Shown piece after piece: positions 8,635-63,275 of a DNA stretch of 64,000 nt; the first letter of the stretch is position 1, and the number at the start of each line of letters is the position of its first letter. The stretch spans positions 1 through 64,000 of the IMG/VR virus record IMGVR_UViG_3300012204_000008; one strand, 5' to 3'. Both the position numbers and the translations under genes were made by a program. The notes below the pieces were generated by a model. That model was not told the origin of the DNA and made no database searches. It saw only the letters and a program-made list of their open reading frames with translations. The DNA comes from a virus.

Positions 8635-9099
8635 ATGTCGATCAGGTGCGGTAAAGGCCACTACCACGATACAGTGGCAGAAGTAAGAGACTGCTATGAA
8701 GTAGTACCAGAAGGTACACAGCCAGACATCAAAAACTATAGGGTAGGGATCAAAGAAGAAATCTCACGAGTAGCCGAGAAGTTACCGCTTGTGGACAAGG
8801 CCCATTATGCAGTGGAGATAGACGGGGAGTTGAAATTCTATCAAGTGGATAGGCCGAGGGAAGGAAAGTGGAAAGGTTTTCTCTTCCTCAAGGTACAGGC
8901 AAGTGACGAAACCTTTCCTATCAAAAGCCCGCAACAAAGACTTCGAATCCTGACAGCTATCGCGGAAGATTATCCATCCGCTATGCGGCGATACGTCCAG
9001 GAAATAGGAAGATGCTGCATTTGTAACCGTACTTTGACGAATGAAGACAGTAGGGCATTCGGAATCGGCCCAATTTGCCGTTCAAAAGTAAACTTCTAG
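8635..9099 (+). CDS. DUF6011-like Zn-finger protein
   Basis: C-terminal GRCCICNRTLT.EDSR..GIGPIC signature. Confidence 0.75.
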   Translation: MSIRCGKGHYHDTVAEVRDCYEVVPEGTQPDIKNYRVGIKEEISRVAEKLPLVDKAHYAVEIDGELKFYQVDRPREGKWKGFLFLKVQASDETFPIKSPQQRLRILTAIAEDYPSAMRRYVQEIGRCCICNRTLTNEDSRAFGIGPICRSKVNF

Positions 9100-13205: not shown

Positions 13206-15176
13206 ATGCAGGCGATAGCGACATTTCAGGCTGGAAGAATTCTTGTCAGGACGGAAACAGATGGAACCTATGACTTTGAGTTAGCGGTAGAAGCTTGTAG
13301 AAATGTTGGGGCAGGAAGATTCTTAAGAGAGGACAAGGTTTGGTCCTTTCCCTTCTCCCTTGAGAAGTGTAAGGATCTTCGTAGGGAGTTCGGGTCTGAT
13401 CTATCAATCTTACCGCCGTTGGCCGCTGCGTATACCGCAGAAGCGGCCCTAGCTAACGCCCAGGCCGCTACTTCTACTGCGTCTGATGCCCAGCTAGCGC
13501 CGGTATTAGTGGCAAGTGCCCCGGCGTTAGCCGCCACCCTGCGGCCCGATCAGCGGGTAGGTGTCCAGTGGCTCACACAACTATTTCATAACGCTGGTCT
13601 AGTCGCTGACCAGCCCGGGCTCGGGAAAACTTTGATCGTTATTGCTGGTGTCATACAGCAAGATCTCAAGGGCCCTATCCTTGTTACTTGTCCACGGCTA
13701 GCCGTTAAGAGTGTCTGGTTTAACCTTCTAAGGAAGTGGGCGTCAGAGGAAACAGTCTATATGTGTCGGGGAACAAGAGCACAGCGCCAGAAAGCAATCA
13801 ACAGTTTTAAGGAAGACACTTCTTCTCGTAAATGGCTTATTACCGTAGCCGAAACACTAAGAATCAAAGAGGACTTTCCGTGCCTAGAAATTTCAACTGG
13901 TAAGAAAGTATCACCCATCAAGTGTAATGATACCAAGACCCATTTAAAGTATCATCTAAAAGAGGAAGATTCCAAAAAAGAGTTCGCTGGTTATGAATTT
14001 CCCGCGCTCTTTTCTGATCCTTGGGCGTTAGTTGTGGTAGATGAGAGCCACAGGATGTTCGGGTCTATGACCGTCACAAAAGGAAATCTTGCCGGTAAAG
14101 GGCTAAAGAAATTGGGAAAACTAGCCGACCGCCGTCTTGCCGTAACAGGTACGCCATTCGGCCGTGGCGGTAGGGTTCAAGGAATGTTCGGAACCCTACA
14201 TTGGCTATGGCCTGAGGAATACACAAGCTTCTGGCGTTGGGTGGATAAGTTTTTCTTTGTAGAAAATGAAGAGATCTTCCTAAGGGGCGGTAGAGGTAGA
14301 ACGAGGACGGTCAAGAAAGTTGGAAAACTGAAAGGCGGTAAGACCGAGGAGCAATTCTTACATCTCCTAGGGCCTCGTATTCTCCGCCGTACTAAGGCTG
14401 AGGTCATGCCTTGGCTCCCGCCTAAGCGATACGAAGAAGTTATATGCGAGATGGAAGGTGAGCAGCTTAGGCAGTACAGGTCTCTTTCCATGGACGCCGA
14501 GGTCAAGGTACCTGGTGGAATCATCACAGCGGATGGGATCTTGGCTGAAATTACAAGGGCTAAACAGATAGCGAATGGAGCCCTATATAAAGACGAAGAA
14601 GGCAAAGTTCATAGCGCCCATGATTCCTCTTGCAAGATAGAAACTCTTCTAGAGATCTTAGAGGCCCGTGGAATTCTAACCGGCGATAGTACAACTAAGA
14701 TAATCATCGCTAGTCAATATAATGAGTTTCTATTCGCAATAAGGCAAAGACTAGAGGAGCTGAAGGTTGGTTTTCTTCTTCTTACCGGCCAAAACAGCGA
14801 TAAGCAAAGAGATCAAATGATGGAGGAATTTCAGCAAGAAGGAGGAAATCTGATCTTTTTGATCAATAGCAAAGCAGGTGGCGTTAGTGTTACACTTGAT
14901 AAAGCCGACGAAGTGCATTGCCTTGATCGTTTGTGGGATCCTAGCGACCAAGATCAATTAGAGGATCGAGCCGATAGGGCAACGAGAGCATTGACAATTG
15001 AAGACGCTGGTAAGCGTAAAGCTGTTACGGTATACTACTATCTGTCAGAAGGAACGATTGATACTAACATCAAAGAAGATGTTGAGGCGAAACGATTCGA
15101 GCAGTATAGGGCAATTGACTCCGTAAGAGATGTAGAGTATATCAGAGAAATGATCAGATATCGCAAAGGAGAATGA
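13206..15176 (+). CDS. SNF2-family (SF2) DNA helicase
   Basis: ADQPGLGKT, VVVDESH, VTGTP, RRTKAEV..LPPK, AGGVSVTL and QLEDRADR motifs. Confidence 0.9.
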   Translation: MQAIATFQAGRILVRTETDGTYDFELAVEACRNVGAGRFLREDKVWSFPFSLEKCKDLRREFGSDLSILPPLAAAYTAEAALANAQAATSTASDAQLAPVLVASAPALAATLRPDQRVGVQWLTQLFHNAGLVADQPGLGKTLIVIAGVIQQDLKGPILVTCPRLAVKSVWFNLLRKWASEETVYMCRGTRAQRQKAINSFKEDTSSRKWLITVAETLRIKEDFPCLEISTGKKVSPIKCNDTKTHLKYHLKEEDSKKEFAGYEFPALFSDPWALVVVDESHRMFGSMTVTKGNLAGKGLKKLGKLADRRLAVTGTPFGRGGRVQGMFGTLHWLWPEEYTSFWRWVDKFFFVENEEIFLRGGRGRTRTVKKVGKLKGGKTEEQFLHLLGPRILRRTKAEVMPWLPPKRYEEVICEMEGEQLRQYRSLSMDAEVKVPGGIITADGILAEITRAKQIANGALYKDEEGKVHSAHDSSCKIETLLEILEARGILTGDSTTKIIIASQYNEFLFAIRQRLEELKVGFLLLTGQNSDKQRDQMMEEFQQEGGNLIFLINSKAGGVSVTLDKADEVHCLDRLWDPSDQDQLEDRADRATRALTIEDAGKRKAVTVYYYLSEGTIDTNIKEDVEAKRFEQYRAIDSVRDVEYIREMIRYRKGE

Positions 15177-20414: not shown

Positions 20415-20800
20415 ACCTTGAGGAGTATCAGAAGGAAACTAATAGAACTGCTATCTATCCTGGGGCTGGCACTGGCAGCGTAGAAGCGATCAATTATGTA
20501 ATCCACGGTCTAGCAGGAGAAGCTGGGGAGGTCTCAAACAAATGGAAAAAGGTTCTAAGGGACGCACCAAGAAAAGGAAAGTGGAAAGGCTTTCTCTTTT
20601 TCAAGTCTCAAGGAGAGCCAGTTATTTCTGAGGAAGTAAAAATGAATATTCTTTCAGAAACAGGCGACTGCCTGTGGTATCTAGCTCGTCTTAATAAGGA
20701 GCTAAGAGCCAGTCTTGATCAAACCGCTGAAGAGAATCTTAACAAACTAAGAATTCGTATGGAAAATAATAAGATCGGCGGGTCAGGCGATAGCCGCTAA
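20411..20800 (+). CDS. MazG-like nucleoside triphosphate pyrophosphohydrolase
   Basis: EYQ...TAIYP...GLAGEAGEV..K.KK...E.GD.LWY...N..KL..R...I.GSGD.R. Confidence 0.88.
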   Translation: MNLEEYQKETNRTAIYPGAGTGSVEAINYVIHGLAGEAGEVSNKWKKVLRDAPRKGKWKGFLFFKSQGEPVISEEVKMNILSETGDCLWYLARLNKELRASLDQTAEENLNKLRIRMENNKIGGSGDSR

Positions 20801-20869: not shown

Positions 20870-21136
20870 ATGAAAGAGATTATTGCGAGCTCTATCCTCG
20901 CAGCAGGTAGCGGTCCAACGATCAACACGACAGGTGTGGTTGCGTGGGTCGTCAAGTACATTATCCCCTTTTTATTCTTGTTTATCGGCGTTTATATCAT
21001 TGCGAACTCACGGCGTGGTAGATTCTCCGATAACATGAGCACGATAACTAATGCTATTATCGGATTGATCGTCATCGCTGGAGCGGCTCTGCTCTTTACG
21101 TTTGCAACGCAATTTGCAACGTTCGTCTTCGGATAA
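20870..21136 (+). CDS. TcpD/VirB2-like small two-TM conjugation protein
   Basis: 88 aa with two TM helices and a basic loop; first gene of the T4SS-like cluster. Confidence 0.6.
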   Translation: MKEIIASSILAAGSGPTINTTGVVAWVVKYIIPFLFLFIGVYIIANSRRGRFSDNMSTITNAIIGLIVIAGAALLFTFATQFATFVFG

Positions 21137-21152
21137 GAAAGAGCGGGAACTA

Positions 21153-24100
21153 GTGCGTATTTCTACCGATGATCAAGTATATAGAATAAACTCTGTTTGG
21201 CTCGGACCTAGGGGACTAACACTCCCTTGGGTGGCACGCTATGCAGCGTATGCCGTTTTTTTCTGTGTTTTCACTTCTATTCTCTTAATAGAAGCAATTG
21301 CCTGGCACGTTTCTATTCCTCCCATATGGGAATTGTGTATCTCTATCTTGGTTGCCAGTTTCGTTATGAGAATGGTTGACCACGACACCACAATCCATGC
21401 AATTTTCACCGTAGGATTTATAGAGACTAAGACCGCTGTCTCTATTTTTCGTAAGAAATTACGCGGAAGGCTTTCATCCGAAACTATCCTCTTTATGGCA
21501 AGGCATAAAAGGGATAGAAGGAAGGTAAAGAGTGCCCAGAGAAAGCAGACCTCTAATCTAAAGAAGCTAGAAGAATTCTCAAAAGGTCATAAGTCCGAGT
21601 TGGCCGTCTCCGAAATAAACAGAAATCTCACTATTTCCAATAACTCTGTTATCTCTTGGTACGTCCTCTCACCGAAAAGATGGTCCTTTAGGTCAAATAT
21701 GCAGCGAGAGGCCTTGCTTTCTTCCTACGCAGATAGGCTAGCTGCATTAGCCGGTCACAACATTACTATAAGAGTTTCTTATCGCCCCTACCCTGTCATC
21801 CAATGGGCTAAGAAACTACATAAGATAACACCTGCTCCCCTCCCTTCTCGCGGAAATGAGTCCTGGGCTTCGTTTCTAATCAACACACAACTCCATCTTC
21901 ACGCTAACTCTCTTTCCGATAAGGTAGTTTTTCTAGGTGTTCACTTAACAAAAAGAAGGGGATTCAACAAGCTCTTTTCAAATGTCTCTGGAAAAGTCAG
22001 CTCTTTTGAGATTGGAAAGCTATCGGAGCACTGCTCAGTCATTGATGAGATCGTGGCGGGGCCAGGTATGGAGGGGCGCCCAGCAACCGTTGGAGAACTA
22101 GAGTGGTTGATGCACCGCTCTGTAGCTGTAGGCGCTCCTTCCCCAGAGAAACTCTCTTCAGTAGAGGAGGATCTTTGGGAAGGTAGTGACTTAGAGGCGT
22201 TCACAGATGCCGTAGCCATTTCCCCTGTCGGGCCACTGGGGGATCTCTTAAAGGTTTCTACTAGGAAACAGGAGGGCTCTCCTACTAGCCATTATGTAGC
22301 AGTTCTAACAATTGGTAGGATGGGGGATCGCAACGTTCCAGAGTCAAGTTGCGACCCTTGGATACAGCATTCTGAAAGACTTCCATTTCCTGTTGAATGG
22401 GTTGCCAATTTTTCTATTATGAAAGGGGCTGATGCAAAGAGAGACGTTCAACAGAAACTTAGAATTGTCAGGGATATGCAGCAACATTATGACGAGCATG
22501 ATGTTGACGAGCCAATCGTTTTAGAGCGTCAAGCTGCCCATGCTAAACAAATAGAAGATGAAATGACACAAGGTGGCAATATCATTGCCTCCAGGGCGCA
22601 TGGATATATACGGCTATGTGTTTCCGGTGCGACGGAAGAGGAATGTAGGAAAAACGCTAGAAGAGCTATTGAGCATTATAGGTCTCTTTCCATAGATATC
22701 GCTTGGCCTAAAGGCCAAGTTTCTTTGGTTAAAGAATTCATTCCACACGAAAACGTTGTTGTTAAGTCCCATATTCGGCGTATGCCTGTTCTCTACCTAG
22801 CTTCTGCATTACCCACCGTAACCGCTTCTGTTGGTGACAGACGCGGACCCTATCTAGGAACTACTACTTCCTCCTCCCGTAGAGCTGTATGTTTTGATAC
22901 ACATTATGCGACAGAGGTCAAAGAGGCCTCTGGTTTGATTCCAATAGTGGGAGCCCTGGGCAGCGGTAAAGCGTTAAGTCTAGATACGCCATTGCCAACG
23001 CCAGATGGTTGGACAACGATGGGGAAAGTTCAAGCAGGGGATCTCTTATTTGGAGAGAATGGTTTACCAACCAAAGTAATTGCCGCAACAGATATCATGT
23101 ATAATCATCAATGTTATGAAATTAAATTTTCAGATGGAACTAGTATCATCGCAGATGCTGGACATCAATGGAAAACAAGAGAAGTAAATAGTAGAAGGCG
23201 CAGTAGGAAATATAAGTCAGCAGTGAAGGAATATGAATCAAAAAATCTTATTTATGGTACTGACTTATGCCTCTGTGGATGTGGAAATAAGGCTGGACTA
23301 AGAACTGCTCATTTTCGCCATGGACAGCCTAGGACTTATATTAAGGGTCATTCTCGTAAAAATAAAGAACCAGAAACTTTTCAGAAAGAGTCGTTAATTA
23401 GAACAACTGAAGATATAACTCACACATTAACTTTTGGTCCGAATGGACAGCACAATCATTCAATCCATGTATGCTCACCATTATCGTTACCAGAAAGAAA
23501 TTTACCGATCCATCCCTACATGCTAGGTGTGTGGCTTGGAGATGGAGATAGTAAACAAGCCAAAGTAACGTCTTACGACGAGGAGATGTTTGGTAATCTA
23601 GAACGCACTGGGCATAGTATTAGACTTCGCTCTAACATTCATCATATTGGATTACTTGGTGTTAAAAAGTTGTTGAAAGAGATAAATGTTTTTGGAAATA
23701 AACATATTCCAATTGAGTATTTACGTGCGAGTGAGCAACAAAGAAGAGAACTTTTGGCTGGATTACTAGACACGGACGGTACAGTTAGCAAAACTGGAAC
23801 GATTATATTTTCATCTACCAGCAGGAACTTGGCTAAAGATGCAACAGAACTAATAAGATCACTTGGATACAAACCAAGTATCAGAATGAGGCAAGTGAAA
23901 GGTAGAACTATAGATAGCTCAACTAGTTATGTTATATCATTCACAACTACTGATAAGGTATTATCTATAACCAGAAAAGCCGATAGAATAAATGAAAATG
24001 ATCGTATTACAAACAAATACAGATACATAGTGGCAGTAGATAAGATCGACTCTGTTCCAGTTAGGTGTATCCAAGTGGATAATTCAGACGGCATGTTTCT

Positions 24101-25310
24101 CGCTGGACGATCGATGATACCAACCCATAATAGCAGCCTTCTCGGTCTTATTACCTACGCCTCTGTTAAGCGTGGGATCCTTACTACTATTCTAGACCCC
24201 TCTGGCCCACTCGCTAGGCTTACTGAATTACCAGACCTCAAGGATTTCTCTAGCCATCTTGATTTAACCAAGGCCCCTAAAGGAACTCTGAATCCTTATT
24301 CCGTAATAGCCATACCGACGAAGAAACAATTTGAGGAGTCTCCAGAGGTCCTTTCCCTTCCCCATACTATTGATCGCAAGGCAAAACTTGAAGAGCTATT
24401 TACTGAGGCAGTTATTGAGGCCGAGAATGACAGAAAGATACTAGCGACGGATGTCGTTAGAATGCTGTTGCCGCCTAAAGTTGATGAGATGCCAGAGACT
24501 CAACTAGTTATTGGCGACGCTGTCAGAGCCGTTGGCGGTTACAGAACTGCTACCTTGAATCAGATAATTGAAAGGCTTGACACTCACGAAGACCGCCATG
24601 GGAAAATCGTAGCCAACTGCCTCAGAGATGTTCGGGAACTACCGAAGGCGCGCCTCTTCTTCCCGCAAGGTGAATTAGGTTCAAGCGAGGAATCCTCACC
24701 GCCTTCTCTACTTGTCATGACGATGGCTGGCCTTACCATTCCGAGCAAGGAAATAGCAAGAGAGCACTGGTCTACAGAAGAACGGCTCGCCGTACCCCTA
24801 CTGCATCTAGCCGCCCACCTTACCGCTAGGAGAATATACGGGTTAGGTATGGCTGAGCGTAAGACAATTGGGCTGGATGAAGTAGGGCAGATGACTGAAT
24901 GGGCTTCGGGGCGTGCCCTTTTTACTCGTATTGGTAGAGACTCTAGAAAATGGAATACGTGTGCCTTGGTGTCCTCACAGAACCCCGCCGACATCCTAGG
25001 CATGGAAGTTGGTAACTTCATTGCTTCCGCATTTGTTGGCAGGATTGAAGATGAACCAACTGCTACCGAGGCGCTAAGACTATTAAGGGTTTCAACTGGA
25101 GTAGGCTACGAGCAAGTATTAGCGAATCTTTCCGCGTATTCTACCAATGAGAAGATAGGCGCTAGAGAATTTATAATGAGGGACGTTGAGAATAGAGTAG
25201 AACGTATCCGCGTAGATATGACCCATCTTCCATTGCTCATGGAGGCTCTGAACACTACAGCAACTACAGTAGAAAGAGCAGATGGTGAGGAAATGAATTG
25301 GGATGCTTAA
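21153..25310 (+). CDS. virB4: VirB3/TcpE-like plus VirB4/TcpF-like conjugation ATPase, intein-containing
   Basis: N-terminal two-TM TDD.VYR..WLGP.G.TLP domain; Walker A GALGSGK|S split by an intein; Walker B IGLDE; RDSRKWN and SSQNP motifs; FIMRD...RV.RIRVD C-terminus. Confidence 0.85.
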   Translation: MRISTDDQVYRINSVWLGPRGLTLPWVARYAAYAVFFCVFTSILLIEAIAWHVSIPPIWELCISILVASFVMRMVDHDTTIHAIFTVGFIETKTAVSIFRKKLRGRLSSETILFMARHKRDRRKVKSAQRKQTSNLKKLEEFSKGHKSELAVSEINRNLTISNNSVISWYVLSPKRWSFRSNMQREALLSSYADRLAALAGHNITIRVSYRPYPVIQWAKKLHKITPAPLPSRGNESWASFLINTQLHLHANSLSDKVVFLGVHLTKRRGFNKLFSNVSGKVSSFEIGKLSEHCSVIDEIVAGPGMEGRPATVGELEWLMHRSVAVGAPSPEKLSSVEEDLWEGSDLEAFTDAVAISPVGPLGDLLKVSTRKQEGSPTSHYVAVLTIGRMGDRNVPESSCDPWIQHSERLPFPVEWVANFSIMKGADAKRDVQQKLRIVRDMQQHYDEHDVDEPIVLERQAAHAKQIEDEMTQGGNIIASRAHGYIRLCVSGATEEECRKNARRAIEHYRSLSIDIAWPKGQVSLVKEFIPHENVVVKSHIRRMPVLYLASALPTVTASVGDRRGPYLGTTTSSSRRAVCFDTHYATEVKEASGLIPIVGALGSGKALSLDTPLPTPDGWTTMGKVQAGDLLFGENGLPTKVIAATDIMYNHQCYEIKFSDGTSIIADAGHQWKTREVNSRRRSRKYKSAVKEYESKNLIYGTDLCLCGCGNKAGLRTAHFRHGQPRTYIKGHSRKNKEPETFQKESLIRTTEDITHTLTFGPNGQHNHSIHVCSPLSLPERNLPIHPYMLGVWLGDGDSKQAKVTSYDEEMFGNLERTGHSIRLRSNIHHIGLLGVKKLLKEINVFGNKHIPIEYLRASEQQRRELLAGLLDTDGTVSKTGTIIFSSTSRNLAKDATELIRSLGYKPSIRMRQVKGRTIDSSTSYVISFTTTDKVLSITRKADRINENDRITNKYRYIVAVDKIDSVPVRCIQVDNSDGMFLAGRSMIPTHNSSLLGLITYASVKRGILTTILDPSGPLARLTELPDLKDFSSHLDLTKAPKGTLNPYSVIAIPTKKQFEESPEVLSLPHTIDRKAKLEELFTEAVIEAENDRKILATDVVRMLLPPKVDEMPETQLVIGDAVRAVGGYRTATLNQIIERLDTHEDRHGKIVANCLRDVRELPKARLFFPQGELGSSEESSPPSLLVMTMAGLTIPSKEIAREHWSTEERLAVPLLHLAAHLTARRIYGLGMAERKTIGLDEVGQMTEWASGRALFTRIGRDSRKWNTCALVSSQNPADILGMEVGNFIASAFVGRIEDEPTATEALRLLRVSTGVGYEQVLANLSAYSTNEKIGAREFIMRDVENRVERIRVDMTHLPLLMEALNTTATTVERADGEEMNWDA
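22971..24131 (+). mobile_element. Class 3 intein with LAGLIDADG endonuclease in the VirB4 Walker A motif (387 aa)
   Basis: K|ALSLDTPLPTPDGW...HQW...LGVWLGDG...LAGLLDTDG...VRCIQV...PTHN|S. Confidence 0.9.
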
Positions 25311-27058
25311 AAAGAATCGTAGTAGTTCTCGTAGCCATACTATGTGTGATCACGGGCTCCCTGCTATTTTCTTCTCCTGCCAACTCAGCAGTCTTACCAA
25401 CCTGCAAGACAGCTCCGACGCCAGAAGTACCTGGTCGTGGAGTTACAAGCTTCGCATATTACAAGCCGATTCCGCTTCCAGCGCCAGCAGACCCTTTTGC
25501 GCCTAACGCAAAGACTTCGATCTACGAGCAGTATGGTGGCGCTGGTATAAGATTCAATACTTATGATCTAGGATGCGGACCTGATGTAGCCAGAGACCCG
25601 GTTGCAGTTATCGGTAATAATATCGCTAATTTTCTACTGACTGTACCAAAAGTCTTAGTAGGAATAACGGCAACTCTTTCTTACTACGCTTTCAACCCTA
25701 GCTATCTTTCAACCTTTGACCCGTTGATCAAGAATACGATTTCAGTATTAAAGGAAAGAGTTTTCGGACCTTGGGTACCAGTATTTCTTATGCTATTAGG
25801 GGTATGGATCATATGGAGAGCACGACGGGCTAGATTCGCTGCTGTCGCTGGCGCTGCTAGTTGGGCACTTCTGGTCATGATAATAGCTGCCGTTCTTTTT
25901 AGGTGGCCGCTTGAAGCAGGTAGAGTTTCTGATCAAACAATTAGCTCAATTCTGAGCACTGTCCATGCCTCCATGAATGGGAAGGAAGCAGGTAAAGATC
26001 CATCGAAATCAGTTGGTGGTTTTCTGCATGAATCTGTATTATATCAACAATGGCTTAGAGGGACCTTTGGCTCTGAGTCTTCGCAGACCGCAGTAAAATA
26101 TGGGCCAGCAATTTTCAAGGCATCAACCTATTCATGGAACGAAGCAGACCAATGTGAGAAAAGTAAGGCGTTATGCAAAACGATAACAGATAGGAAAGGC
26201 CAAGAATTTGTCAAGACTGCGCAGTTAATTGAAACTTCCGATCCCGATGCTTACAGATATCTAACTGGTTCTAGAAGTGATGATAGGATTGGTGCTGTTT
26301 TCGTAGCATGGTTGGCAGCACCTTTCGCAACGTTATTCCTAATGGTTTCATTTCTATTAATGATAGGAGCCTATCTAATAGTAAGGCTAGCGGTAATGCT
26401 TTTCCCTCTCATGGCAACTTTCGCCGTCTTTCCAGCATTTGCCTCTACCGTCAAAGGAATTTTTTCAACAATTATGGCGGCTATCATTAACTCTATCTTA
26501 TTTGGTGTAGGCGCCTCTATAACAGTTCTTGGGATTAGACTTCTATTAGGGCATGGTTCTGGGTTACCATTACTAATATCGGTCTTCCTATTGGGCCTTT
26601 TCACATTGGTTATGTGGATTGCATTGAAACCGTTTAGAAGTCTAACAAAGATGGTGCCGCATGGCTTTGACCCATTTGCAGCGAATCGTGAATTTAAGCA
26701 CGATGTTATGAAGACTGGAAAGGGAATATTTAAGATATGGGCAGGCACACACGGTGTCTCAGCGGCAGCGGCGGTGATTTCTGGAGAAAAGAAGAGAGAG
26801 GAAGGAGAAACTGGAACTGGAACTGGAACAGGGGTCAAGGAGACCAGACTGGAAGCTACCTCCGCCCCAGATCCAGCCACAGGTCCGCCCATGGCTCTTA
26901 GTATGGCCGGGAATGTTCCTCCTCCACCTTCCATTTCTGGGCCGTTGCCCACGGTAGTTGAAAATTCCAATCAGAATATAAAAGAGGCTTCCTATACTGA
27001 GACAGAAACTGGAAGGGTATATAAGATCTTCGATCCTAATGAAGAGGAGGCGGAGTGA
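25298..27058 (+). CDS. VirB6/TcpH-like polytopic membrane channel protein
   Basis: Signal or anchor helix, YDLGC, multiple TM helices, WLRGTFG and a Pro-rich tail; follows VirB4. Confidence 0.75.
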   Translation: MGCLKRIVVVLVAILCVITGSLLFSSPANSAVLPTCKTAPTPEVPGRGVTSFAYYKPIPLPAPADPFAPNAKTSIYEQYGGAGIRFNTYDLGCGPDVARDPVAVIGNNIANFLLTVPKVLVGITATLSYYAFNPSYLSTFDPLIKNTISVLKERVFGPWVPVFLMLLGVWIIWRARRARFAAVAGAASWALLVMIIAAVLFRWPLEAGRVSDQTISSILSTVHASMNGKEAGKDPSKSVGGFLHESVLYQQWLRGTFGSESSQTAVKYGPAIFKASTYSWNEADQCEKSKALCKTITDRKGQEFVKTAQLIETSDPDAYRYLTGSRSDDRIGAVFVAWLAAPFATLFLMVSFLLMIGAYLIVRLAVMLFPLMATFAVFPAFASTVKGIFSTIMAAIINSILFGVGASITVLGIRLLLGHGSGLPLLISVFLLGLFTLVMWIALKPFRSLTKMVPHGFDPFAANREFKHDVMKTGKGIFKIWAGTHGVSAAAAVISGEKKREEGETGTGTGTGVKETRLEATSAPDPATGPPMALSMAGNVPPPPSISGPLPTVVENSNQNIKEASYTETETGRVYKIFDPNEEEAE

Positions 27059-27558
27059 AACCTATTTTTAGAGGACTCATTTATTGGATACTATCTGATT
27101 GGCGACATATAGTTATTACAATTACCGCTCCAATTTTCATCGTTGTCTTCATCATGCTCTCACCAAATATCAATCCAAATACTTCTAGTGTAAAGGAAAC
27201 TTCAATTCCAACTTCAGAGGCTAACGATCCTAGCTATCATAATGACGCCATTGAGACTAACCAAGAAAGTAAGTTTCTCCCGATCTCTAGAAAATTCATT
27301 ATGGATTGGTTGAACACAAGCGGTTCTCAATCACAATGGTTAAAGCGTCTTTCTTATACAACTACTCCAGAATTATTGGAAGAGTTAAGGTTTACTGAGT
27401 TGGATCGCGTTCCTAAAGACAAGCTCTCTTCTTCAAAAGTCTCTTTGACTGGTCAATTCTATGCTGAGGTAACTCACACTTTAGCTTCTGGCAGAATAAT
27501 CGTGACGAGTGTTACATTTGATGGTACCAGTTGGAAGGTTTCGGATCTCAGTGACTAA
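27055..27558 (+). CDS. VirB8/TcpC-like bitopic protein
   Basis: Single TM, S/T/P linker, and NTF2-like C-terminus (F..DW...WL.RL...TPEL...WKVSD). Confidence 0.6.
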   Translation: MKPIFRGLIYWILSDWRHIVITITAPIFIVVFIMLSPNINPNTSSVKETSIPTSEANDPSYHNDAIETNQESKFLPISRKFIMDWLNTSGSQSQWLKRLSYTTTPELLEELRFTELDRVPKDKLSSSKVSLTGQFYAEVTHTLASGRIIVTSVTFDGTSWKVSDLSD

Positions 27559-27808
27559 TATTGGGCCTTCTGGAATTCGTTTAGAAATAGACAAAGCACT
27601 TAGAACGGATCATATAACCAGACGAGACATGGCAGAGGTTCTTGGGATGAGTGAGGAGAATTTTTCTAGATTTCTTTGCGGGCATACAGGAACTAAGACT
27701 TTCGTATTGGAAGAGATCGCTCGGCAGCTTGGCAGGGAGTGGAGATTGATCCCAAAGGGAGTAGAACTATGGGTAAGAGGGGTTGAAGAGCATGAAAGGG
27801 TTTCATAA
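27551..27808 (+). CDS. XRE-family HTH regulator
   Basis: ITRRDMAEVLGMSEENFSRFLCG...LEEIARQLG. Confidence 0.7.
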   Translation: MTNIGPSGIRLEIDKALRTDHITRRDMAEVLGMSEENFSRFLCGHTGTKTFVLEEIARQLGREWRLIPKGVELWVRGVEEHERVS

Positions 27809-27983
27809 TTTGGAAGTTACAATTACTAAAAGTGGTTTTCTATACGAATGTGACGAATGTAGTAGAAAATTCGTTATTGATCGGAAGGGAAAGTTAACTT
27901 TTATTGACAAAGGAGATCCTTTTATTTTCCATCGCGGAAACAGTGAAGAACTTCTTTCATTGGCGGTTGAGACTAAGGAATAA
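27783..27983 (+). CDS. Small Zn-ribbon protein
   Basis: YECDECSRK...IDKGDP..FH. Confidence 0.5.
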   Translation: MKSMKGFHNLEVTITKSGFLYECDECSRKFVIDRKGKLTFIDKGDPFIFHRGNSEELLSLAVETKE

Positions 27984-27985
27984 AA

Positions 27986-29017
27986 GTGAGCGGGAAGTGG
28001 ATTGCTAGAGTTGGTATAACATTTTTCATTGCTTTTATCATCGGTTTGATATTGATGATGTCTCTTTTTATGTATGTGGTTAGCATCAACACTAGTGCAG
28101 CGCCTCCTACTTCCCCACAGATTGCTCCAGTCGCTTGCAACCAACCCATTAGGATTTCTTCCAAAGTAACCAGTGCTCAGAATCTTTCCACTGAGCAGAC
28201 AAGAAATGCAGCTACCATTATCGCAGTTGGAAAACAAAAGAAAATTCCTGCTTACGGTTGGGTTATCGCTATTGCTACTGCTATGCAAGAGTCTAATCTT
28301 AAGAATCTTAACTACGGGGATAGAGATTCTGTTGGATTGTTTCAACAAAGAGCGCCATGGGGTAGTTTCAAGGAACGTACAACTCCTGCTATTTCTGCAG
28401 GAATGTTTTATACCGGTGGTCGGGGTGGGCAACCTGGCCTGTTGGACATAAGTGGCTGGCAAAGTATGTCTGTTACCCAAGCTGCGCAGCGCGTGCAACG
28501 CTCTGCCTTCCCCGGGGCGTATGCAAAGTACGAGGGGTTAGCCAACTCTCTAGTCAAATCATTAAGTGGAACAATTACTATCTCAACCGGTCAGGCTTGC
28601 CGCCCAGTTCCAACGAATAGTGCATGGACTCTACCTGTCACCAAAGGTACCTATCGTTTAACGGCGAGATTCGGGCAGTGTTCAGCCTTATGGTCAAATT
28701 GCCACACGGGTTTGGACTTTGCAGCACCGAATGGGACACCCATTATGGCCGCTGCCAATGGTAGAATAGTCTCAGCGCAAAATGGTGGCGCTTACGGTAA
28801 CTTGACCAAAGTTCAACACAGCAATGGCATCGTCACTTATTACGCGCACCAATCTTCATTCGTCGTTCGCTCTGGGAATGTTAGAGCAGGCCAGGTAATC
28901 GGTAAAATTGGGGCAACTGGAAATACTACTGGTCCCCATCTACATTTTGAAGTTAGAGTAAACGGTAATCCTATCGATCCTGCAAAATGGCTAACCGATC
29001 ATAAGGTCTCTCCTTGA
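27986..29017 (+). CDS. Membrane-anchored peptidoglycan hydrolase (lysozyme-like plus M23 peptidase), VirB1/TcpG/CwlT-like
   Basis: N-terminal TM; AMQES..NL.YGDRDS.GLFQQR domain; M23 motifs HTGLD, YAH and GPHLHFEV. Confidence 0.88.
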   Translation: MSGKWIARVGITFFIAFIIGLILMMSLFMYVVSINTSAAPPTSPQIAPVACNQPIRISSKVTSAQNLSTEQTRNAATIIAVGKQKKIPAYGWVIAIATAMQESNLKNLNYGDRDSVGLFQQRAPWGSFKERTTPAISAGMFYTGGRGGQPGLLDISGWQSMSVTQAAQRVQRSAFPGAYAKYEGLANSLVKSLSGTITISTGQACRPVPTNSAWTLPVTKGTYRLTARFGQCSALWSNCHTGLDFAAPNGTPIMAAANGRIVSAQNGGAYGNLTKVQHSNGIVTYYAHQSSFVVRSGNVRAGQVIGKIGATGNTTGPHLHFEVRVNGNPIDPAKWLTDHKVSP

Positions 29018-29286
29018 ATAATTCTAAGTGCAAGGTAAAAGTTGTAAGACCAAACCATCAGGCAGGAGTTGAATGCGGGCATGAAATAGTTCCCGAAAGC
29101 GATTTCTGTTTATTCCATGCTATATTAATAGAGGACTCTGAGATGAGAGAGAAAGCAAGAGGACGTTGGTCTTCTTCTAGAAGAACAACGGACGGGAAAA
29201 TTAAGATTTCTGATCCAGTTACTTATGAGAGACTTCTTATGAAATTGGTTTCTGCTGCACGTGAAATGCGGTACGAGCTTGACTGA
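29014..29286 (+). CDS. Hypothetical protein
   Basis: TTGA overlap; C/H motif. Confidence 0.45.
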   Translation: MNNSKCKVKVVRPNHQAGVECGHEIVPESDFCLFHAILIEDSEMREKARGRWSSSRRTTDGKIKISDPVTYERLLMKLVSAAREMRYELD

Positions 29287-29451
29287 GATCCTTGCCATTC
29301 TAAATGAGAACGTAGTTCTTCGATGGTTAATTTTCATTGCTGGTTGTGGTGCGCTAGGAACACTCAGTAAAACAAGTTGTGTCTCGTGGATTGGTTTCTG
29401 CCTCATCTGGTTCGTAGTCTATTTCTATATGATCCTCGAGTGGCGATTAAA

Positions 29452-31515
29452 ATGAGCGAGAAAATAGTAGTAACTGTTCCATTACTTAGAACCAGTGAGC
29501 GTAAGACCTTTCGAAGATGCCCCTGGCTTTGGAATCAGTCGTATAACAAAGGATTAACGACTCGTAGAAACCCTACTTGGTCTTGGTTTGGAACCGCGAT
29601 CCATCGAGGCCTTGAGATTCGCTATCCGGTTGGTAAAACTCGTGGTAGCGTCATCGATATGCTTGATGCATTTGACGAGTCTCTTGGTACCGAAGTACGG
29701 AAAGTCTATACACAGGGCCGGGAGATCGAAGATACTGAAATTATTGACGCAAATACTCTAGGCCATGCGATGCTATTAGGATACGTTAATGAATACGGAA
29801 TCGATGAAGGATGGGAGGTAATTCATTCTGAGCAGACTTTCCAGATAGACGTTCCAGATGAAAATGGAAACCTACTAGTTGTATACTGCGGCAGATGGGA
29901 TGGTATTTGGAGAAATATCCGAACCAAGAACTTTTGGATTGTAGATCACAAAGGGCTAAAGTTAAACGAAAAGATTTTAACTCCAAATGGATGGAAAGAG
30001 AATAAAGATTTAGAAGTTGGAGATTTAATAATAGGGAGTAATGGTCAAGAACAAAAGATAGAAGGGGTGTACGATTTAGGAAAGAAAGAATTTTATAGAG
30101 TGATATTCGATGATGGAATTTGGTTAGATACTACGGATGACCATTTGTGGGAAGTCACAAATAAACATTCACACACTAAAGTTATAACAACAATGCAACT
30201 CAAAGAAGAAAGCCAAAAACCTAGACAGGAAGGATATAAGTATGTTAGGCTGGTCAAACCAGTCCAATTTCAAAAAGCAGAGTTACCTATAGATCCATAT
30301 ACTCTTGGAGTGCTTCTTGGAGATGGAGGAATAACTCGTGGAGTGACCCTAACTTGTCACGACAAAGAGATAGTGAATAGAATTTCAAAAACTTATAAAG
30401 TTCAAGAAAGTGAATCAAGATCAAGATACGATTATTGCACTACTTTTTACATTCCAGAGCTGAAACAAAAACTCAAAGAGCTTGGACTTCTAGGACTATA
30501 TTCTGATGAAAAGTTCATACCAAAAGAATATCTATTTTCTTCAATAGATCAACGAATAGATTTATTGAAAGGATTAATGGATACTGACGGAAATGCTCAT
30601 ATTACTTTTAACAAAAAAAAGCAGAAACAAGGATTTAGAGCTAGATACACAACAACTTCCGAAAAATTGGCTGAAGATATAAGAGATTTAGTTTGGTCGT
30701 TAGGAGGTAGAGCCTCCTTAAGTTCTTCCACTCCAAATTATACTAGAGCAGAGGACAGAAAAACTAAATTGGAAGGAAGACAAGCTTATCACCTAAATAT
30801 AAGTATAGAAATTAATCCTTTTTACTTACCAAGGAAAGCTGAAAAATGGCGGCCGCCAAGGCAGATAATGCAACGTAGAATAATTTCTGTTGAGTATATT
30901 GGAGAAGATTCGGCTAGATGTATTAAAGTTTCAAATTCAGATGGACTATATATAGCTGGTGATTTTGTTGTCACTCACAATACTCGAAAAAGCTTTCCCA
31001 AGAATTGGGGTTTCTATAGTATAGACAGTCAGGCAGGAAGTTATTTATTCGCCGCTCCGGAGGTTCTGAAGTTCATGGGAATTTTCACAGGTGAGGAAAT
31101 AATAGATGGTCTGATTTTCAACTGTCTTCGGAAAGCTATGCCGGATGAAAGGCCCCGTAATTCTGAAGGTCGTTGTCTAAACAAAAACGGTAGTGTTTCA
31201 AAAGTTCAACCACCGCCTTTCTTTCATAGAGAGGTTACATTCCGTAGCCCAGAAGAGCGCGTCACTCAATATAATCAAATTGTGGCGGAGTCAATCCACA
31301 TGGAGAAATTTCGTAGCAACGAGCTTCCGATCTATAAGAATCAGACCGAAGAATGCAATCGCTGTATTTTGTTTGAGTTTTGTGAGGCAGATGAGAGAGG
31401 CTATGAGAACGGCCAGGAGTTCGCCAACCATATGCTTGTCCATCGCGACCCTTACGCAGACCACATCTTAGAGATGGCACAAGCTGGCGTTACGGTAAAA
31501 ATGGATCACCGATAA
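29452..31515 (+). CDS. PD-(D/E)XK (RecB/Cas4-like) exonuclease, intein-containing
   Basis: RTSERKTFRRCP, FGTAIH, E..F, GRWDG, IVDHK|T and CNRC.LFEFC motifs. Confidence 0.85.
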   Translation: MSEKIVVTVPLLRTSERKTFRRCPWLWNQSYNKGLTTRRNPTWSWFGTAIHRGLEIRYPVGKTRGSVIDMLDAFDESLGTEVRKVYTQGREIEDTEIIDANTLGHAMLLGYVNEYGIDEGWEVIHSEQTFQIDVPDENGNLLVVYCGRWDGIWRNIRTKNFWIVDHKGLKLNEKILTPNGWKENKDLEVGDLIIGSNGQEQKIEGVYDLGKKEFYRVIFDDGIWLDTTDDHLWEVTNKHSHTKVITTMQLKEESQKPRQEGYKYVRLVKPVQFQKAELPIDPYTLGVLLGDGGITRGVTLTCHDKEIVNRISKTYKVQESESRSRYDYCTTFYIPELKQKLKELGLLGLYSDEKFIPKEYLFSSIDQRIDLLKGLMDTDGNAHITFNKKKQKQGFRARYTTTSEKLAEDIRDLVWSLGGRASLSSSTPNYTRAEDRKTKLEGRQAYHLNISIEINPFYLPRKAEKWRPPRQIMQRRIISVEYIGEDSARCIKVSNSDGLYIAGDFVVTHNTRKSFPKNWGFYSIDSQAGSYLFAAPEVLKFMGIFTGEEIIDGLIFNCLRKAMPDERPRNSEGRCLNKNGSVSKVQPPPFFHREVTFRSPEERVTQYNQIVAESIHMEKFRSNELPIYKNQTEECNRCILFEFCEADERGYENGQEFANHMLVHRDPYADHILEMAQAGVTVKMDHR
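29953..30981 (+). mobile_element. Class 3 intein (Gly at position 1) with LAGLIDADG endonuclease (343 aa)
   Basis: DHK|GLKLNEKILTPNGW...DHLW...LGVLLGDG...LKGLMDTDG...ARCIKV...VTHN|T. Confidence 0.88.
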
Positions 31516-31573: not shown

Positions 31574-32434
31574 GTGGCAGGTACTAGACCAACAGCGATT
31601 ACGAAGTTACAAGACGCACCTAGTGTTGGTAAAAGGAACTGGTTGATCTATGGAGCCGCTGGCATCGGTAAAACGAGTCTAGCTGGCACTGCCCCCAATG
31701 CAATCTTCTTAGCCGTGGAGGCTGCTGGTACAGAATCTGCAAAGATGATGGGCTCTTCAGCAGATGAATGGATTATTGATAATTGGTCTGAGCTTCGCAC
31801 AGAAGCCTACGAATATTTCAAGAACGGTTCGGGCTGCAAGGACTACGAATGGGTGCTTATAGACTCCGGATCTGAGATGGAGGAGATTGCTTGGCAGGAC
31901 CAACTAGAAACAGCCCATGCCCGTAATGCCGCTAGGAGTCTCTACAAGCCGGCTTTGGAGGACTATCAGATTATTGGAAATAAGATGAAAAACATGGTAG
32001 ATGCTTTCAATCGTCTACCGATTAACGTTCTCTACACCTTCCAAGACATGCGGGTAACAATTGAAGACCAGGACACAGAGGAAGAGAAGCAGTTGATTAT
32101 GCCGCTGGTTGGTAGTCCCAACAATGGCATAATTTCCACGAAAATATGCGGTAAGACCACTCTAAATGGGTGGCTAACTGTCCGTAGAGTCAAAATTGAT
32201 AGTGAAGGAGAGGGAGTAGAAACTAAGGACGTTAGGCGGCTTTACACTTCGGCAGGAAAGAGGTTTATAGCCAAAGACAGACATGACACATTTGGTCGTT
32301 TCGTTGACAACCCCAATATAACAGAGATGGCAGAAGCTGTTCAAAAAAAGATAGATAAAGCCAAGACAACTGAAGAGAAAATGAAAGCAGCAGGACTATC
32401 ATCAAGCGTTTCTTCTATGACAGGAGCTAAGTAA
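31574..32434 (+). CDS. AAA_24/Sak4-like recombination ATPase
   Basis: IYGAAGIGKT, VLIDSG and AKDR motifs. Confidence 0.8.
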   Translation: MAGTRPTAITKLQDAPSVGKRNWLIYGAAGIGKTSLAGTAPNAIFLAVEAAGTESAKMMGSSADEWIIDNWSELRTEAYEYFKNGSGCKDYEWVLIDSGSEMEEIAWQDQLETAHARNAARSLYKPALEDYQIIGNKMKNMVDAFNRLPINVLYTFQDMRVTIEDQDTEEEKQLIMPLVGSPNNGIISTKICGKTTLNGWLTVRRVKIDSEGEGVETKDVRRLYTSAGKRFIAKDRHDTFGRFVDNPNITEMAEAVQKKIDKAKTTEEKMKAAGLSSSVSSMTGAK

Positions 32435-33320: not shown

Positions 33321-35531
33321 GTGTCTGGGGAACTTATTGCAACAAACGACCCTCAGGTTATTAACCTGAATGGTCTTTCTGAGTATCATTTTGAAATCCT
33401 GAAAGAAAGTGCAATTAATCCAGAAGTCATTCTGGAAAGGCATTATAGAACAGTTTACATGGATGATAATGGCCCTAAGCTTCTCCGATCTCTTGCCATT
33501 CCTAGTTGGGCTAGAGATAATCCCGACTGCTATCCAGGTCTTCTCATTCCACTTTACCGTGCAAGTGGTGAATTAATCTCTTATCAATATCGACCAGATG
33601 TCTTACAAGAAATAGAAGGTAAGAAAAGAAAATATGCGAACCCAAGTGGGAAAGCAAACGTAATTGATGTTCATCCAAGAAATATAGAACGTGTTAGAGA
33701 TCCAACAACTAGATTGTGGATTACAGAGGGTACAAAAAAGGGAGATGCACTTACCTCTTACGGTGAATGCGCTGTCAGTTGCTCTGGTGTTTTCAATTGG
33801 CGTAATCGCATTGGCACATTGGGAGACTGGGAGGATATCCCCCTTAGAGACAGAGAAGTTATCATCTGTTTTGATTCCGATACATATGGTAATGACAAAG
33901 TCTCAAGAGCTATGGCACGCCTAGGTCGTTGGGTAAAATCGAAACTTGCAAAAAGAGTATTGTATATCGTTGTTCCTTATAACGTAAATGGAAATGGAAC
34001 AAAAGGAGTTGATGATTACTTAGCTGCCGGTGGCAGTATACTAGAGCTAGTAGAAATTGGCGAAGACAAGCCTCCAGAAATAAATAAACTCAATCTAGAA
34101 TTTGCAGACACTCAATTATCTGCAACAATTGCAGGGGAAGTTCTCGAGGATAAGTTTTGTTGGGCTAGTGGATTAGGTTGGCTAAAATGGGAGGGGAAAA
34201 AGTGGAAGGGTTGCCAACTTAGCTCAATAAAGGAAGCAATTAGGGATTATGTACTAGATTGGTATAATAAAGAAGTCAAAGTTGGTTGTGATAGTGAGCG
34301 TAGAAAAGAACTTTTCGCCCTTCAATCAGCAAAGAGGGTTGGTGCTCTCACTAGTCTAATGGAGGGATTGCTAGAGGAAGATCCAGAAATCTTTGATGCG
34401 CATCCAGAACTAATGAATACACCTAGTGGTGTTATCCAACTACCAACAATGGAACTTCTTCCTCATGATCCAAATCTTTATATGACAAATATAACGAAGG
34501 TGGCGTATGTTCCTGGTGCCAGTCATCCAGATTGGGAAGCAACACAAAAGGCAATCTCAGAAGAAGCAAGACAATGGGTTCTAGAGCGACTTGGGCAAGC
34601 AATTACTGGTGATACCCCACCGGATGACGTTCTCACTGTTTTCCAAGGAACAGGTGCTAATGGAAAAAGTTCTCTTCTCGCAGGCGTAACGGGGGCTTTA
34701 GGGGATTACGCGGTTAAAGTTAGTGATAAACTCTTACTACCAGATCAAGGTCAGCACCCCACAGAAAAGATGAATCTCCGAGGGGCACGATTCGCTTATA
34801 TTGAGGAAACAGCAGAAGCTCGTTATCTTGATGTGCAGCGCCTCAAAGAGATCGCAGGAACTCCATCGATAACCGCTAGACTCATGCGTCAAAATAATGT
34901 AACGTTTTCAGCTACCCATACCTTCTTCCTAGCCACTAACCACATGCCCATTATTTCTGAAAACACCCATGCTGTTTGGCGTCGTCTTAAACTAGTAAAA
35001 TTTCCGTATACATTCAGGAAAAACAATGAAATACTTAGAGATGAATGGGATAAATACGGAGATTCTGGCCTTAGAGATCGAATGAAGACAGGAGCGAAAC
35101 AACAGGAAGCTGTTTTAGCCACACTAGTTGAATATGCATCTCGTTACTATCAAAACAACAAAATGATGTGCGCAGACAGTGCAAGAGTTGACAAATACAC
35201 AAGAAGGTGGAGGGGGGAAACAGATATCATTATGAGATATATAGATGAAAGACTAATTATGGACAAACAGTCTCATATACTAGTTAATGAATTATATGTG
35301 GATTTTAGTATCTGGCTTGAAAATCATGGCCATCATAGATGGAACGAACAAACAACAACTGGTCGTTTCAAAGATCATGAAGACTTTACTAACTCGCGTG
35401 TTAGAAAAACCCGAACGGATGACTACAACCCACTTTCCCGTAGAACTTTTATTGAATCAGAGAATAGGGCAGTTACAGGAAAACAAAACATCTGGCAAGG
35501 TGTAAGATTTAGAATAATAGAAGACGAGTGA
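33321..35531 (+). CDS. DUF3854 TOPRIM primase fused to a D5/P4-type SF3 helicase
   Basis: ITEG.KK, CFDSD, KGVDDYL; GTGANGKS, IEET, ATNH.P and WRRL motifs. Confidence 0.9.
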   Translation: MSGELIATNDPQVINLNGLSEYHFEILKESAINPEVILERHYRTVYMDDNGPKLLRSLAIPSWARDNPDCYPGLLIPLYRASGELISYQYRPDVLQEIEGKKRKYANPSGKANVIDVHPRNIERVRDPTTRLWITEGTKKGDALTSYGECAVSCSGVFNWRNRIGTLGDWEDIPLRDREVIICFDSDTYGNDKVSRAMARLGRWVKSKLAKRVLYIVVPYNVNGNGTKGVDDYLAAGGSILELVEIGEDKPPEINKLNLEFADTQLSATIAGEVLEDKFCWASGLGWLKWEGKKWKGCQLSSIKEAIRDYVLDWYNKEVKVGCDSERRKELFALQSAKRVGALTSLMEGLLEEDPEIFDAHPELMNTPSGVIQLPTMELLPHDPNLYMTNITKVAYVPGASHPDWEATQKAISEEARQWVLERLGQAITGDTPPDDVLTVFQGTGANGKSSLLAGVTGALGDYAVKVSDKLLLPDQGQHPTEKMNLRGARFAYIEETAEARYLDVQRLKEIAGTPSITARLMRQNNVTFSATHTFFLATNHMPIISENTHAVWRRLKLVKFPYTFRKNNEILRDEWDKYGDSGLRDRMKTGAKQQEAVLATLVEYASRYYQNNKMMCADSARVDKYTRRWRGETDIIMRYIDERLIMDKQSHILVNELYVDFSIWLENHGHHRWNEQTTTGRFKDHEDFTNSRVRKTRTDDYNPLSRRTFIESENRAVTGKQNIWQGVRFRIIEDE

Positions 35532-42700: not shown

Positions 42701-42852
42701 GATGGAACGGTCTTTATGAGAAATATAAGAAAGAGATATGGAATATCAAAAAAGATAGAGATTTGATATTGGTAAATGGATATAAGAGAAAGGAATTTCG
42801 CAGAGCCATTTATGCAAATAACATATGGATAATAAATACGGGGGAAATATGA
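39712..42852 (+). CDS. dnaE: DNA polymerase III alpha subunit (DnaE-like)
   Basis: PHP domain (LHHHSTYS.LDG, ALTEHG), GPARGSAAGSL, PDIDLDF, SVHAAG, LKIDFLGL, GIFQF and YAFNRAHS motifs. Confidence 0.95.
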   Translation: MGDFVSLHHHSTYSYLDGYATPEEHIIAAANLEMPAMALTEHGNISSHVKLEQAANKHGIKPLFGIEAYTGKVDEDRSRWKWHLTILAMNQEGYRNLLRITSKGWAEGFFYEPTISGEMLAEHNEGLIVLSGCSGSKMACDLLGGKGVPPHEVDYGSAIATANKFRDLFGDRYYLETQAFPELERTRSINQAWERVSEETGIPIVATGDVHYPRPKDGEMQVILHAIDRGGRNNTVEKQLQSWGYDIKLTNFRDEIVLQKLIATGLSSLAAEQAIANTGLIADRCNVTLPKLKELQFPSKTPNEELFRQWLRKGWNYRGFDNLIGEERGRYLRRLKHEISLIVEKGFIDYFLVISDVVRFAKREGIPVGPARGSAAGSLACFLLRITEVNPMLFSNLLFERFIDKNRHDIPDIDLDFDDEQRWKIRQYLCDQYGEDRVGNIGTFVKYKGRNSLIDVARVHKVPVWALEGVKEKLIERSSGDLRANATIEDTIEMFPDVKKIFEQFPELYLAKRLEGNLRGFSVHAAGLVVANEPLTNSVAVYTRIDSKTGNRGEVLSIDKYDAEYLNALKIDFLGLKTMGVIRRCLELTGMSLEELYKLPLDDPEVYAGFKRNEVIGIFQFDGRAMRSVNREVKPDNFSELADINALSRPGPLHSGAAAEYIMVKHRKKEQEDLGEVVARITEDSNGQIVYQESILQVVRELGGFSWEEAARIRKLISKKQGEQAFQQMRMKFIKGAIGNDLEERIADKVWKQLVTAGAYAFNRAHSISYSIIAYWTMWIKQHFPLQFYCASLQKYDPKTKGFDLLKEAKKKEIPVLPPHPIRSEITWSINKELGGLQAGITQIPGIGEKIATAMIDYREAGISEIKEWKDYLPVRGIGPKTIESLEEFSTTEDPFGLDLLTKTLEKVRAWLWENGDAEGLPFPTSTAEDIPYSDIAGQHVWLGTVREINLKDVIELHRSRTGEELNPATIKQPEYLNYAVLTCEDQTGPLVITVHRWNGLYEKYKKEIWNIKKDRDLILVNGYKRKEFRRAIYANNIWIINTGEI

Positions 42853-55803: not shown

Positions 55804-55910
55804 TATAGTACAAACTGAAGGCATCGGTCTAAGCCTTCAAATGCCGTGATGGCAGGTCTACTCTAAGAGTAGCAATCAATTTGCCGTGCGGTATTTGGGA
55901 GGAGACCAAC
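55804..55910 (+). promoter_or_regulatory. Promoter (-10 TATAGT) and structured capsid mRNA leader
   Basis: Hairpin TGAAGGC/GCCTTCA; long stem 55838-55897 abutting the GGAGG RBS. Confidence 0.5.

Positions 55911-60608: not shown

Positions 60609-63275
<2,667 letters not shown>

Follow-up and report, generated by a model that had tools for sequence, protein, structure and literature searches.

A type IV secretion-type channel module in the genome of a tailed phage of soil actinobacteria

The stretch analysed here (the window, 64,000 nucleotides) comprises positions 1 to 64,000 of a 105,457-bp contig, IMG/VR record IMGVR_UViG_3300012204_000008, from a tailed phage of actinophage type. At positions 20870-29017 it carries a run of genes that an initial annotation, made from the DNA letters alone, had likened to the mating-pair formation (MPF) channel of conjugative type IV secretion systems (T4SS). 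Transfer by phages and transfer by conjugative elements are regarded as distinct horizontal routes, and we know of no phage that uses a type IV secretion machine. All of the genes listed for this module in the initial annotation were confirmed in place, in one orientation and with open frames, and so was its position among phage genes. It is preceded by a MazG-like gene and followed by exonuclease and recombination/replication genes, all close-packed on the same strand.

The first gene, orfA (20870-21136, plus strand, as are all the genes of the module), follows a GGGAG ribosome-binding site and encodes an 88-residue protein in which a transmembrane scan finds two segments, consistent with a small membrane subunit of the VirB2/TcpD-E type. 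The second open reading frame (ORF; 21102-25310) probably starts at the GTG codon at 21153, 16 nt past the orfA stop, and encodes an ATPase precursor of ~1385 residues, or ~998 once spliced. Its N terminus contains two transmembrane segments, and residues ~17-160 are homologous to a small two-transmembrane protein that bacteria encode separately. Because the first ~160 residues match a separate bacterial gene, we read this ORF as an in-frame fusion of a VirB3-like protein with a VirB4-like ATPase; the joined VirB3-like part occupies 21153-21590, and wherever bacterial and plasmid loci were checked, its counterpart is an overlapping gene of its own. Pfam AAA_10 matches the ATPase (3.5e-17), and NCBIfam TcpF matches its two exteins in collinear order (1e-9 and 2e-13); the ATPase also matches the PHROG family phrog_24614, where the function is unassigned. 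A profile of the C-extein placed VirB4 (4ag5) at the top of the solved structures with an E-value of 0.0026, compared with 0.68 for HerA. The structural model (predicted local distance difference test, pLDDT, 80) fitted VirB4 and TrwK best, with template-modelling scores of 0.55-0.61 against 0.40-0.44 for HerA and 0.36-0.40 for TrwB. The VirB4-like assignment is thus to be preferred over one to the HerA/FtsK families, because both the profile and the fold comparison rank VirB4 above HerA and TrwB. Splicing restores the Walker A motif, and Walker B and the RDSRK motif are invariant.

The remaining genes complete the set. The protein encoded by orfC (25298-27058) is a polytopic VirB6/TrbL-like membrane protein of 586 residues with ~7 transmembrane segments; the NCBIfam model of the CD3337/EF1877 mobilome membrane protein matches it at 8.5e-11, short of the curated cut-off. 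Among ESM Atlas clusters, those of TrbL/VirB6 come nearest to it (0.97), which we take as a lead only. The product of orfD (27055-27558) combines one transmembrane segment with an NTF2-like domain, a bitopic layout of the VirB8/TcpC kind. Its model reaches a pLDDT of >90 within that domain, and its three best fold matches are TraM of pIP501 (Z 12.2), 3ub1, which we take to be TcpC (Z 11.3), and VirB8 (Z 11.1), with PrgL also among the matching conjugation proteins. Between orfD and the hydrolase gene there is a small ORF of the Xre/Cro helix-turn-helix (HTH) type, orfE (27509-27808). Its HTH matches are weak and it has no counterpart in the bacterial loci examined, where orfD abuts the hydrolase; orfE is a phage-specific insert and possibly a regulator. 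The last gene (27986-29017) encodes a cell-wall hydrolase with an N-terminal transmembrane anchor, a transglycosylase-like domain and an M23 endopeptidase, an arrangement analogous to VirB1/TcpG. The M23 domain is matched at 5e-33 in Pfam with its zinc motifs HxxxD and HxH intact (HTGLD, HLH), and residues 63-213 give endolysin-type PHROG matches with the motif MQES...GLFQQR. With a VirB4-family ATPase, a VirB6-like protein, an NTF2-fold VirB8-like protein and a dedicated peptidoglycan hydrolase all present, the earlier claim of a Tcp-like channel set holds, and interpretation of the genes as a monoderm T4SS-type (Tcp-like, MPF-FATA-like) channel module is supported by their predicted products.

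The ATPase gene contains an intein of 387 residues (22971-24131, plus strand; residues 624-1010) with a LAGLIDADG endonuclease, inserted in Walker A between GALGSGK and S. It starts with Ala, contains VRCIQ and ends in THN before the serine, in agreement with its earlier assignment to class 3. It matches Pfam LAGLIDADG_3/Hom_end and, at 6e-33, DnaB inteins of the PDB, its closest solved relatives being the mycobacterial DnaB inteins, which we presume to be class 3 as well. The initial annotation had also regarded the intein as a phage mark shared with the neighbouring nuclease, and this part did not survive comparison. An intein occupies the same site in five complete Pseudonocardia loci (L004-L008; 46-48% identity to the phage intein) and in P0006, a high-GC metagenomic homologue (~60%), and a truncated Pseudonocardia locus (L049) shows the intein start, whereas the inteins of the phage ATPase and the neighbouring nuclease are only 29% identical. 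Because bacterial alleles carry it at the identical Walker A site, the intein does not serve as a phage mark, and its distribution is explained by homing within the ATPase gene family, in bacteria and a phage.

The module proteins were compared by tblastn with 83 related loci. The ATPase exteins were matched in 82-83 of these, the two-transmembrane protein in 79, orfC in 77, the hydrolase in 68 and orfA in 41 (45-60% identity to the first module gene), and the gene order was identical throughout; orfD is too diverged for tblastn, and a profile of its bacterial counterparts matches it at 1.4e-16. Because the same genes occur in the same order in nearly all 83 loci, the arrangement can be taken to be far beyond chance. 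The closest homologues (51-57% identity) come from Nocardioidaceae and Kineosporiaceae genomes and from metagenomes. Together with those of the Pseudonocardiaceae, the modules of these families resemble the phage module most closely (ATPase 44-57%, orfA up to 60%, orfC up to 48% and M23 up to 65% identity, in the same order); such chromosomal and island modules differ from it in a GC content of 67-74%, in encoding the two-transmembrane protein as a separate gene and in the absence of the HTH insert. The C-extein also matches genes annotated as 'ATP-binding protein' on 90 actinobacterial plasmids, and the module is found on plasmids of Rhodococcus, Prescottella and Streptomyces. On Prescottella equi pVAPN (NZ_AP024188), the linear plasmid of Streptomyces sp. 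NEAU-S7GS2 (NZ_CP029542) and many Rhodococcus plasmids, the homologous genes follow the phage order (two small proteins, ATPase, large membrane protein, small protein, M23 or NlpC/P60 hydrolase). These plasmid loci differ in their high GC content, in an identity of only 33-38% and in having ParA and a divergent FtsK/SpoIIIE gene beside them; the type assigned to pVAPN is MOBF. A metagenome scan for the module gave one high-GC locus (L003), which was uninformative.

The distribution of the ATPase among sampled genomes varies widely between families. It was found in 119 of 121 Pseudonocardiaceae, nearly always as a single intact copy, in 29 of 49 Kineosporiaceae, patchily in the Nocardioides family (12 of 121) and in 22 of 301 genomes across the class. 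These tallies include unpublished genomes of the Nocardioides family (G020) and Pseudonocardiaceae (G133, G167, G191 and G216), without which the counts are 11 of 120 and 115 of 117, respectively. The Pseudonocardiaceae locus sits among housekeeping genes (dnaK, dnaJ, dcd), for example at L059:9422-16000 and in others of L052-L083, and the Nocardioides modules are flanked by pSAM2-type RepSA, resolvase and NUDIX proteins and by restriction or defence genes. The module family thus spans plasmid-borne, island-borne and core chromosomal versions. The initial description of the phage module as 'conjugation-type' therefore stands as a statement of homology; as a statement that this is purely conjugation machinery it does not, since the family includes a near-universal, mostly single-copy, housekeeping-sited locus in the Pseudonocardiaceae.

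The module is an integral, long-resident and selection-maintained part of the phage genome. Homology to the bacterial loci ends at 20870 and at 29017, and the upstream MazG-like gene and the downstream exonuclease have no counterpart in those loci, matches between inteins apart. The GC content at third codon positions (GC3) of the module genes is 0.34-0.54, equal to that of the phage replication and packaging genes (0.29-0.55), compared with 0.75-0.95 in the bacterial homologues, and the phage ATPase is alone in its family in its AT-rich amino-acid usage. At the same time, the phage ATPase keeps 146 of the 156 columns (94%) that are conserved in at least 98% of 119 homologues, compared with 42 of 207 variable columns (20%), and invariant positions are retained in orfC (24/24), the hydrolase (34/35), orfA (7/7) and the two-transmembrane segment (15/15). 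This argues against decay, because a decaying insert would not give such a gradient between conserved and variable positions. In a tree that otherwise follows host families, the phage ATPase lies on a long branch (0.7), paired with the high-GC metagenomic sequence P0047 (53% identity, support 87), and the pair falls outside the clade uniting Nocardioidaceae and Kineosporiaceae. Because this branch is deep and long and lies outside the sampled families, the phage did not acquire its copy recently from any of the lineages sampled; artefacts of long branches and of composition limit any further reading of its position.

Sequence data from elsewhere support the continuity of the locus. Nine soil-metagenome runs from six studies match the module stretch. 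Logan contigs of 48-49 kb from independent assemblies cover 18.5-31.5 kb with three differences, although the two runs behind these contigs may be the source sample, and two further studies contribute fragments of at least 99% identity, one of them across the left module edge. Contigs from other assemblies thus cross both edges (20.8 and 29.0 kb), leaving a chimeric assembly unsupported. There is only a very slight chance that the module is an assembly chimera or a recent or decaying fragment of an integrative and conjugative element (ICE) or its actinomycete form (AICE), useless to the phage. Nocardioides modules do occur in islands with RepSA, resolvase and NUDIX genes, and ICEs can enter prophages, as Tn916 has done in Streptococcus phage IPP61, which lends this idea what plausibility it has. 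However, it is largely refuted by the fully ameliorated composition, the intact frames and motifs, the lack of an integrase or att site, the close packing with phage genes on one strand, the contigs across both edges and the distance of the nearest homologue, which is only 53-55% identical. Nor does the window otherwise look like an ICE or AICE: it has no integrase, Rep or ParA, its GC3 is phage-like and its bacterial homology is confined to the module. Within the window there is likewise no ParA-like or plasmid Rep gene that would indicate a phage-plasmid. The earlier view of a resident phage module rather than an inserted ICE is thus sustained by amelioration, purifying selection, the deep branch, the lack of an integrase and contig continuity.

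The same data bear on a second explanation, namely that the phage uses channel parts to interfere with or exclude others, by poisoning or occupying a T4SS of the host, a plasmid or an ICE, or by keeping out superinfecting phages or conjugative DNA that enters the cell. Likely hosts commonly have related modules on their plasmids and islands, and the phage-specific HTH gene within the module suggests separate control. Interference, however, rarely needs a full set with all catalytic motifs and 94-100% of invariant residues, ATPase and hydrolase included, and we regard this explanation as distinctly improbable.

The presence of the module in other phages was investigated next to its bacterial distribution. 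A tblastn search of 50,697 phage records with the C-extein gave no match, and among the matches listed for the whole ATPase in the phage records there were only matches to the intein. An intein-less homologue matched three Firmicute records only, at 25% identity, and no deposited phage carries this module. One of the three, Streptococcus phage IPP61 (KY065497), bears some likeness in that it encodes a hydrolase, a VirB6-like protein and an ATPase of VirB4 type; it differs in that these belong to a whole Tn916, recently inserted together with its integrase, excisionase and tet(M)-type gene, in opposite orientation to the phage genes and at 25% identity. The insertion (L103, 11.0-28.4 kb of the record) is a complete Tn916-type conjugative transposon with transfer genes inside a pneumococcal prophage. 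Literature searches gave no paper in which an MPF module is described as belonging integrally to a tailed phage.

The initial annotation had proposed a search for other phage contigs with VirB4 and TerL, and four IMG/VR records carrying the module (G126-G129) were indeed found, none of which could be shown to be phage-internal. Two of them (G127 and G129) contain real TerL, tail and integrase genes. They were rejected as phage-borne cases: the module adjoins an ftsK of canonical appearance and the collinear stretch extends beyond the integrase, which makes the module probably host DNA beside a prophage. Both records (L093-L097 and L098-L101, respectively), labelled 'provirus/linear virus', start with the module and ftsK (IDPKRVEF...GIPHL), at least 30 kb from TerL and integrase, and their viral boundaries probably include host chromosome. 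The other two, G126 and G128, were set aside as well, having no TerL match. Neither PF05065 nor PF04860 was matched in any of the four records, and their 'tape measure' PHROG matches may be the M23 proteins.

The same parts list as in the phage module is found in the Tcp locus of Clostridium perfringens pCW3, in pIP501 Tra, in pCF10 Prg and in Tn916/ICEBs1. The phage module differs from these Tcp/MPF-FATA systems in its tailed-phage home, in the fusion of the VirB3-like and VirB4-like proteins, in the absence from the window of a TcpA analogue and a relaxase, and in that its similarity to them is at profile level only, far below curated cut-offs. We consider it reasonably probable that the phage encodes a working monoderm T4SS channel module of this Tcp/MPF-FATA-like type, captured long ago and kept under selection. 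The source would be an actinobacterial lineage related to the Nocardioidaceae and Kineosporiaceae versions, from which an ancestor of the phage took the module.

From these comparisons we infer how such a channel might assemble, when, and for what cargo. The module would be transcribed with early or middle genes, given its place between the MazG-like gene and the recombination genes. Splicing of the intein would rebuild the P-loop of the VirB4-like ATPase, and the fused VirB3-like hairpin would tether the enzyme to the membrane, where it may energise a channel made of the VirB6-like, VirB8-like and small two-transmembrane proteins. The anchored transglycosylase/M23 enzyme would open the peptidoglycan locally, allowing the infected cell to build a contact-dependent export channel that spans the envelope. 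Candidate cargoes are phage DNA, or phage proteins delivered into neighbouring cells or hyphal compartments.

In Streptomyces, TraB and Spd proteins provide an example of the former, as double-stranded DNA replicons are moved between cells and across septa by an FtsK-like pump with membrane proteins (PMC4447253). Streptomyces TraB systems differ in needing no VirB4/VirB6/VirB8 channel, and no TraB or Spd homologue is present in the phage window. It is tempting to speculate that the phage genome spreads virion-free into neighbouring cells or hyphal compartments through the T4SS-type channel and a DNA pump, but we regard this as doubtful; what probability of a functional module is left by this reading, by a host-function substitute and by interference falls to the delivery of proteins or a use not foreseen here. 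An FtsK/SpoIIIE-type gene does accompany the module on plasmids and in IMG/VR record G126. An exhaustive search for an FtsK-like partner, seeded with the module-linked FtsK-like protein of G126, gave 150 matches, none with the IDLKGG motif. A single low-GC FtsK-like candidate, P0256, on a 29.6-kb contig, also lacks this motif and was not taken to be the phage's.

Several observations count against a working channel. No FtsK/VirD4-type coupling protein was found in the window, its larger ORFs include none that is relaxase-like, and no origin of transfer was found there, which is unrecognisable without a relaxase family; for the 64-kb window, the earlier statement that no integrase, att-like boundary, relaxase or coupling protein is recognisable is thereby borne out. 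In the Pseudonocardiaceae genomes examined there are no FtsK-domain or transfer genes within 10 kb of the module. The margin of the conjugation proteins over generic NTF2 proteins as fold matches of orfD is small (~1-2 Z units), and the module is known from one phage only, precluding a comparison of conservation between phages. Finally, no RNA run is listed among the sequencing runs with the stretch.

Because the Pseudonocardiaceae version is core chromosomal and has no transfer genes nearby, the module family need not move DNA. The phage copy could accordingly be a substitute for a host function, a version of a chromosomal envelope machine that keeps or redirects envelope remodelling or secretion without any transfer of phage DNA. 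The lack of a coupling protein and a relaxase from the window fits such a role, as does the family's occurrence in bacteria, which is frequent in Kineosporiaceae and in Pseudonocardiaceae extends to nearly every genome, mostly as one copy amid housekeeping genes, and a tree that follows host families suggests vertical inheritance. On the other hand, the phage copy is closest to clades whose versions are patchy and borne on islands, and 8 kb and six genes, one of them for a cell-wall hydrolase, are much to invest in a substitute. We think this explanation unlikely. No description of the Pseudonocardiaceae chromosomal locus was found, and no tested function for any chromosomal or island homologue.

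If the phage does encode a working channel, a complete mating-channel module under selection in a tailed phage suggests that a combination of the two routes of horizontal transfer is possible, or that parts of a T4SS have entered viral use; either, if true, would call for different models of phage spread in structured or mycelial hosts. A further outcome of the comparison is a T4SS-like locus present, mostly as a single copy, in nearly all Pseudonocardiaceae, on which the phage copy offers a compact, self-contained handle.

The rest of the window identifies the contig as a tailed phage of soil actinobacteria. It encodes a large terminase (TerL, 48861-50408), a portal (51009-52850), a major capsid protein (55881-57665) and a major tail protein (58613-59290), as well as a DnaE-type polymerase (39712-42852) and a primase (33321-35531). 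An SNF2 helicase gene (13206-15176) lies upstream of the module, and downstream of it are the RecB-family exonuclease with its intein (29377-31515) and a Sak4-like protein (31574-32434). The capsid and polymerase are 30% and 48% identical, respectively, to counterparts in cultured phages of Streptomyces, Microbacterium, Arthrobacter and Gordonia, and a DNA-level search of deposited phages gave no match. The GC content is ~42-47% over most of the window. Promoter and terminator scans showed no difference from shuffled sequence.

Immediately after the hydrolase gene, orfG (29014-29286) overlaps the hydrolase stop and encodes a Cys/His-rich protein, possibly a zinc finger, with an uncertain start at TTG 29014 or ATG 29143. 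It was rejected as a member of the module, as it has no homology to the 90-residue gene that follows the hydrolase in bacterial loci. Upstream of the module, a 39-nt repeat (8854-8892 and 20567-20605, 85% identity) is common to the MazG-like gene and the ORF at 8635-9099, which are probably paralogues with this motif conserved; the repeat was also flagged as a 'goes back' joint in the comparison with sequencing reads. At the place expected for a tape measure, 3' of the major tail protein, 60609-63275 encodes an 888-residue protein that has no PHROG match and contains a calcineurin-like phosphoesterase domain (1.8e-7). The gene after the portal (52858-55644) encodes a 928-residue protein with an N-terminal RNA-ligase-like segment (phrog_2659, residues 4-172) and head-morphogenesis or protease-like regions.

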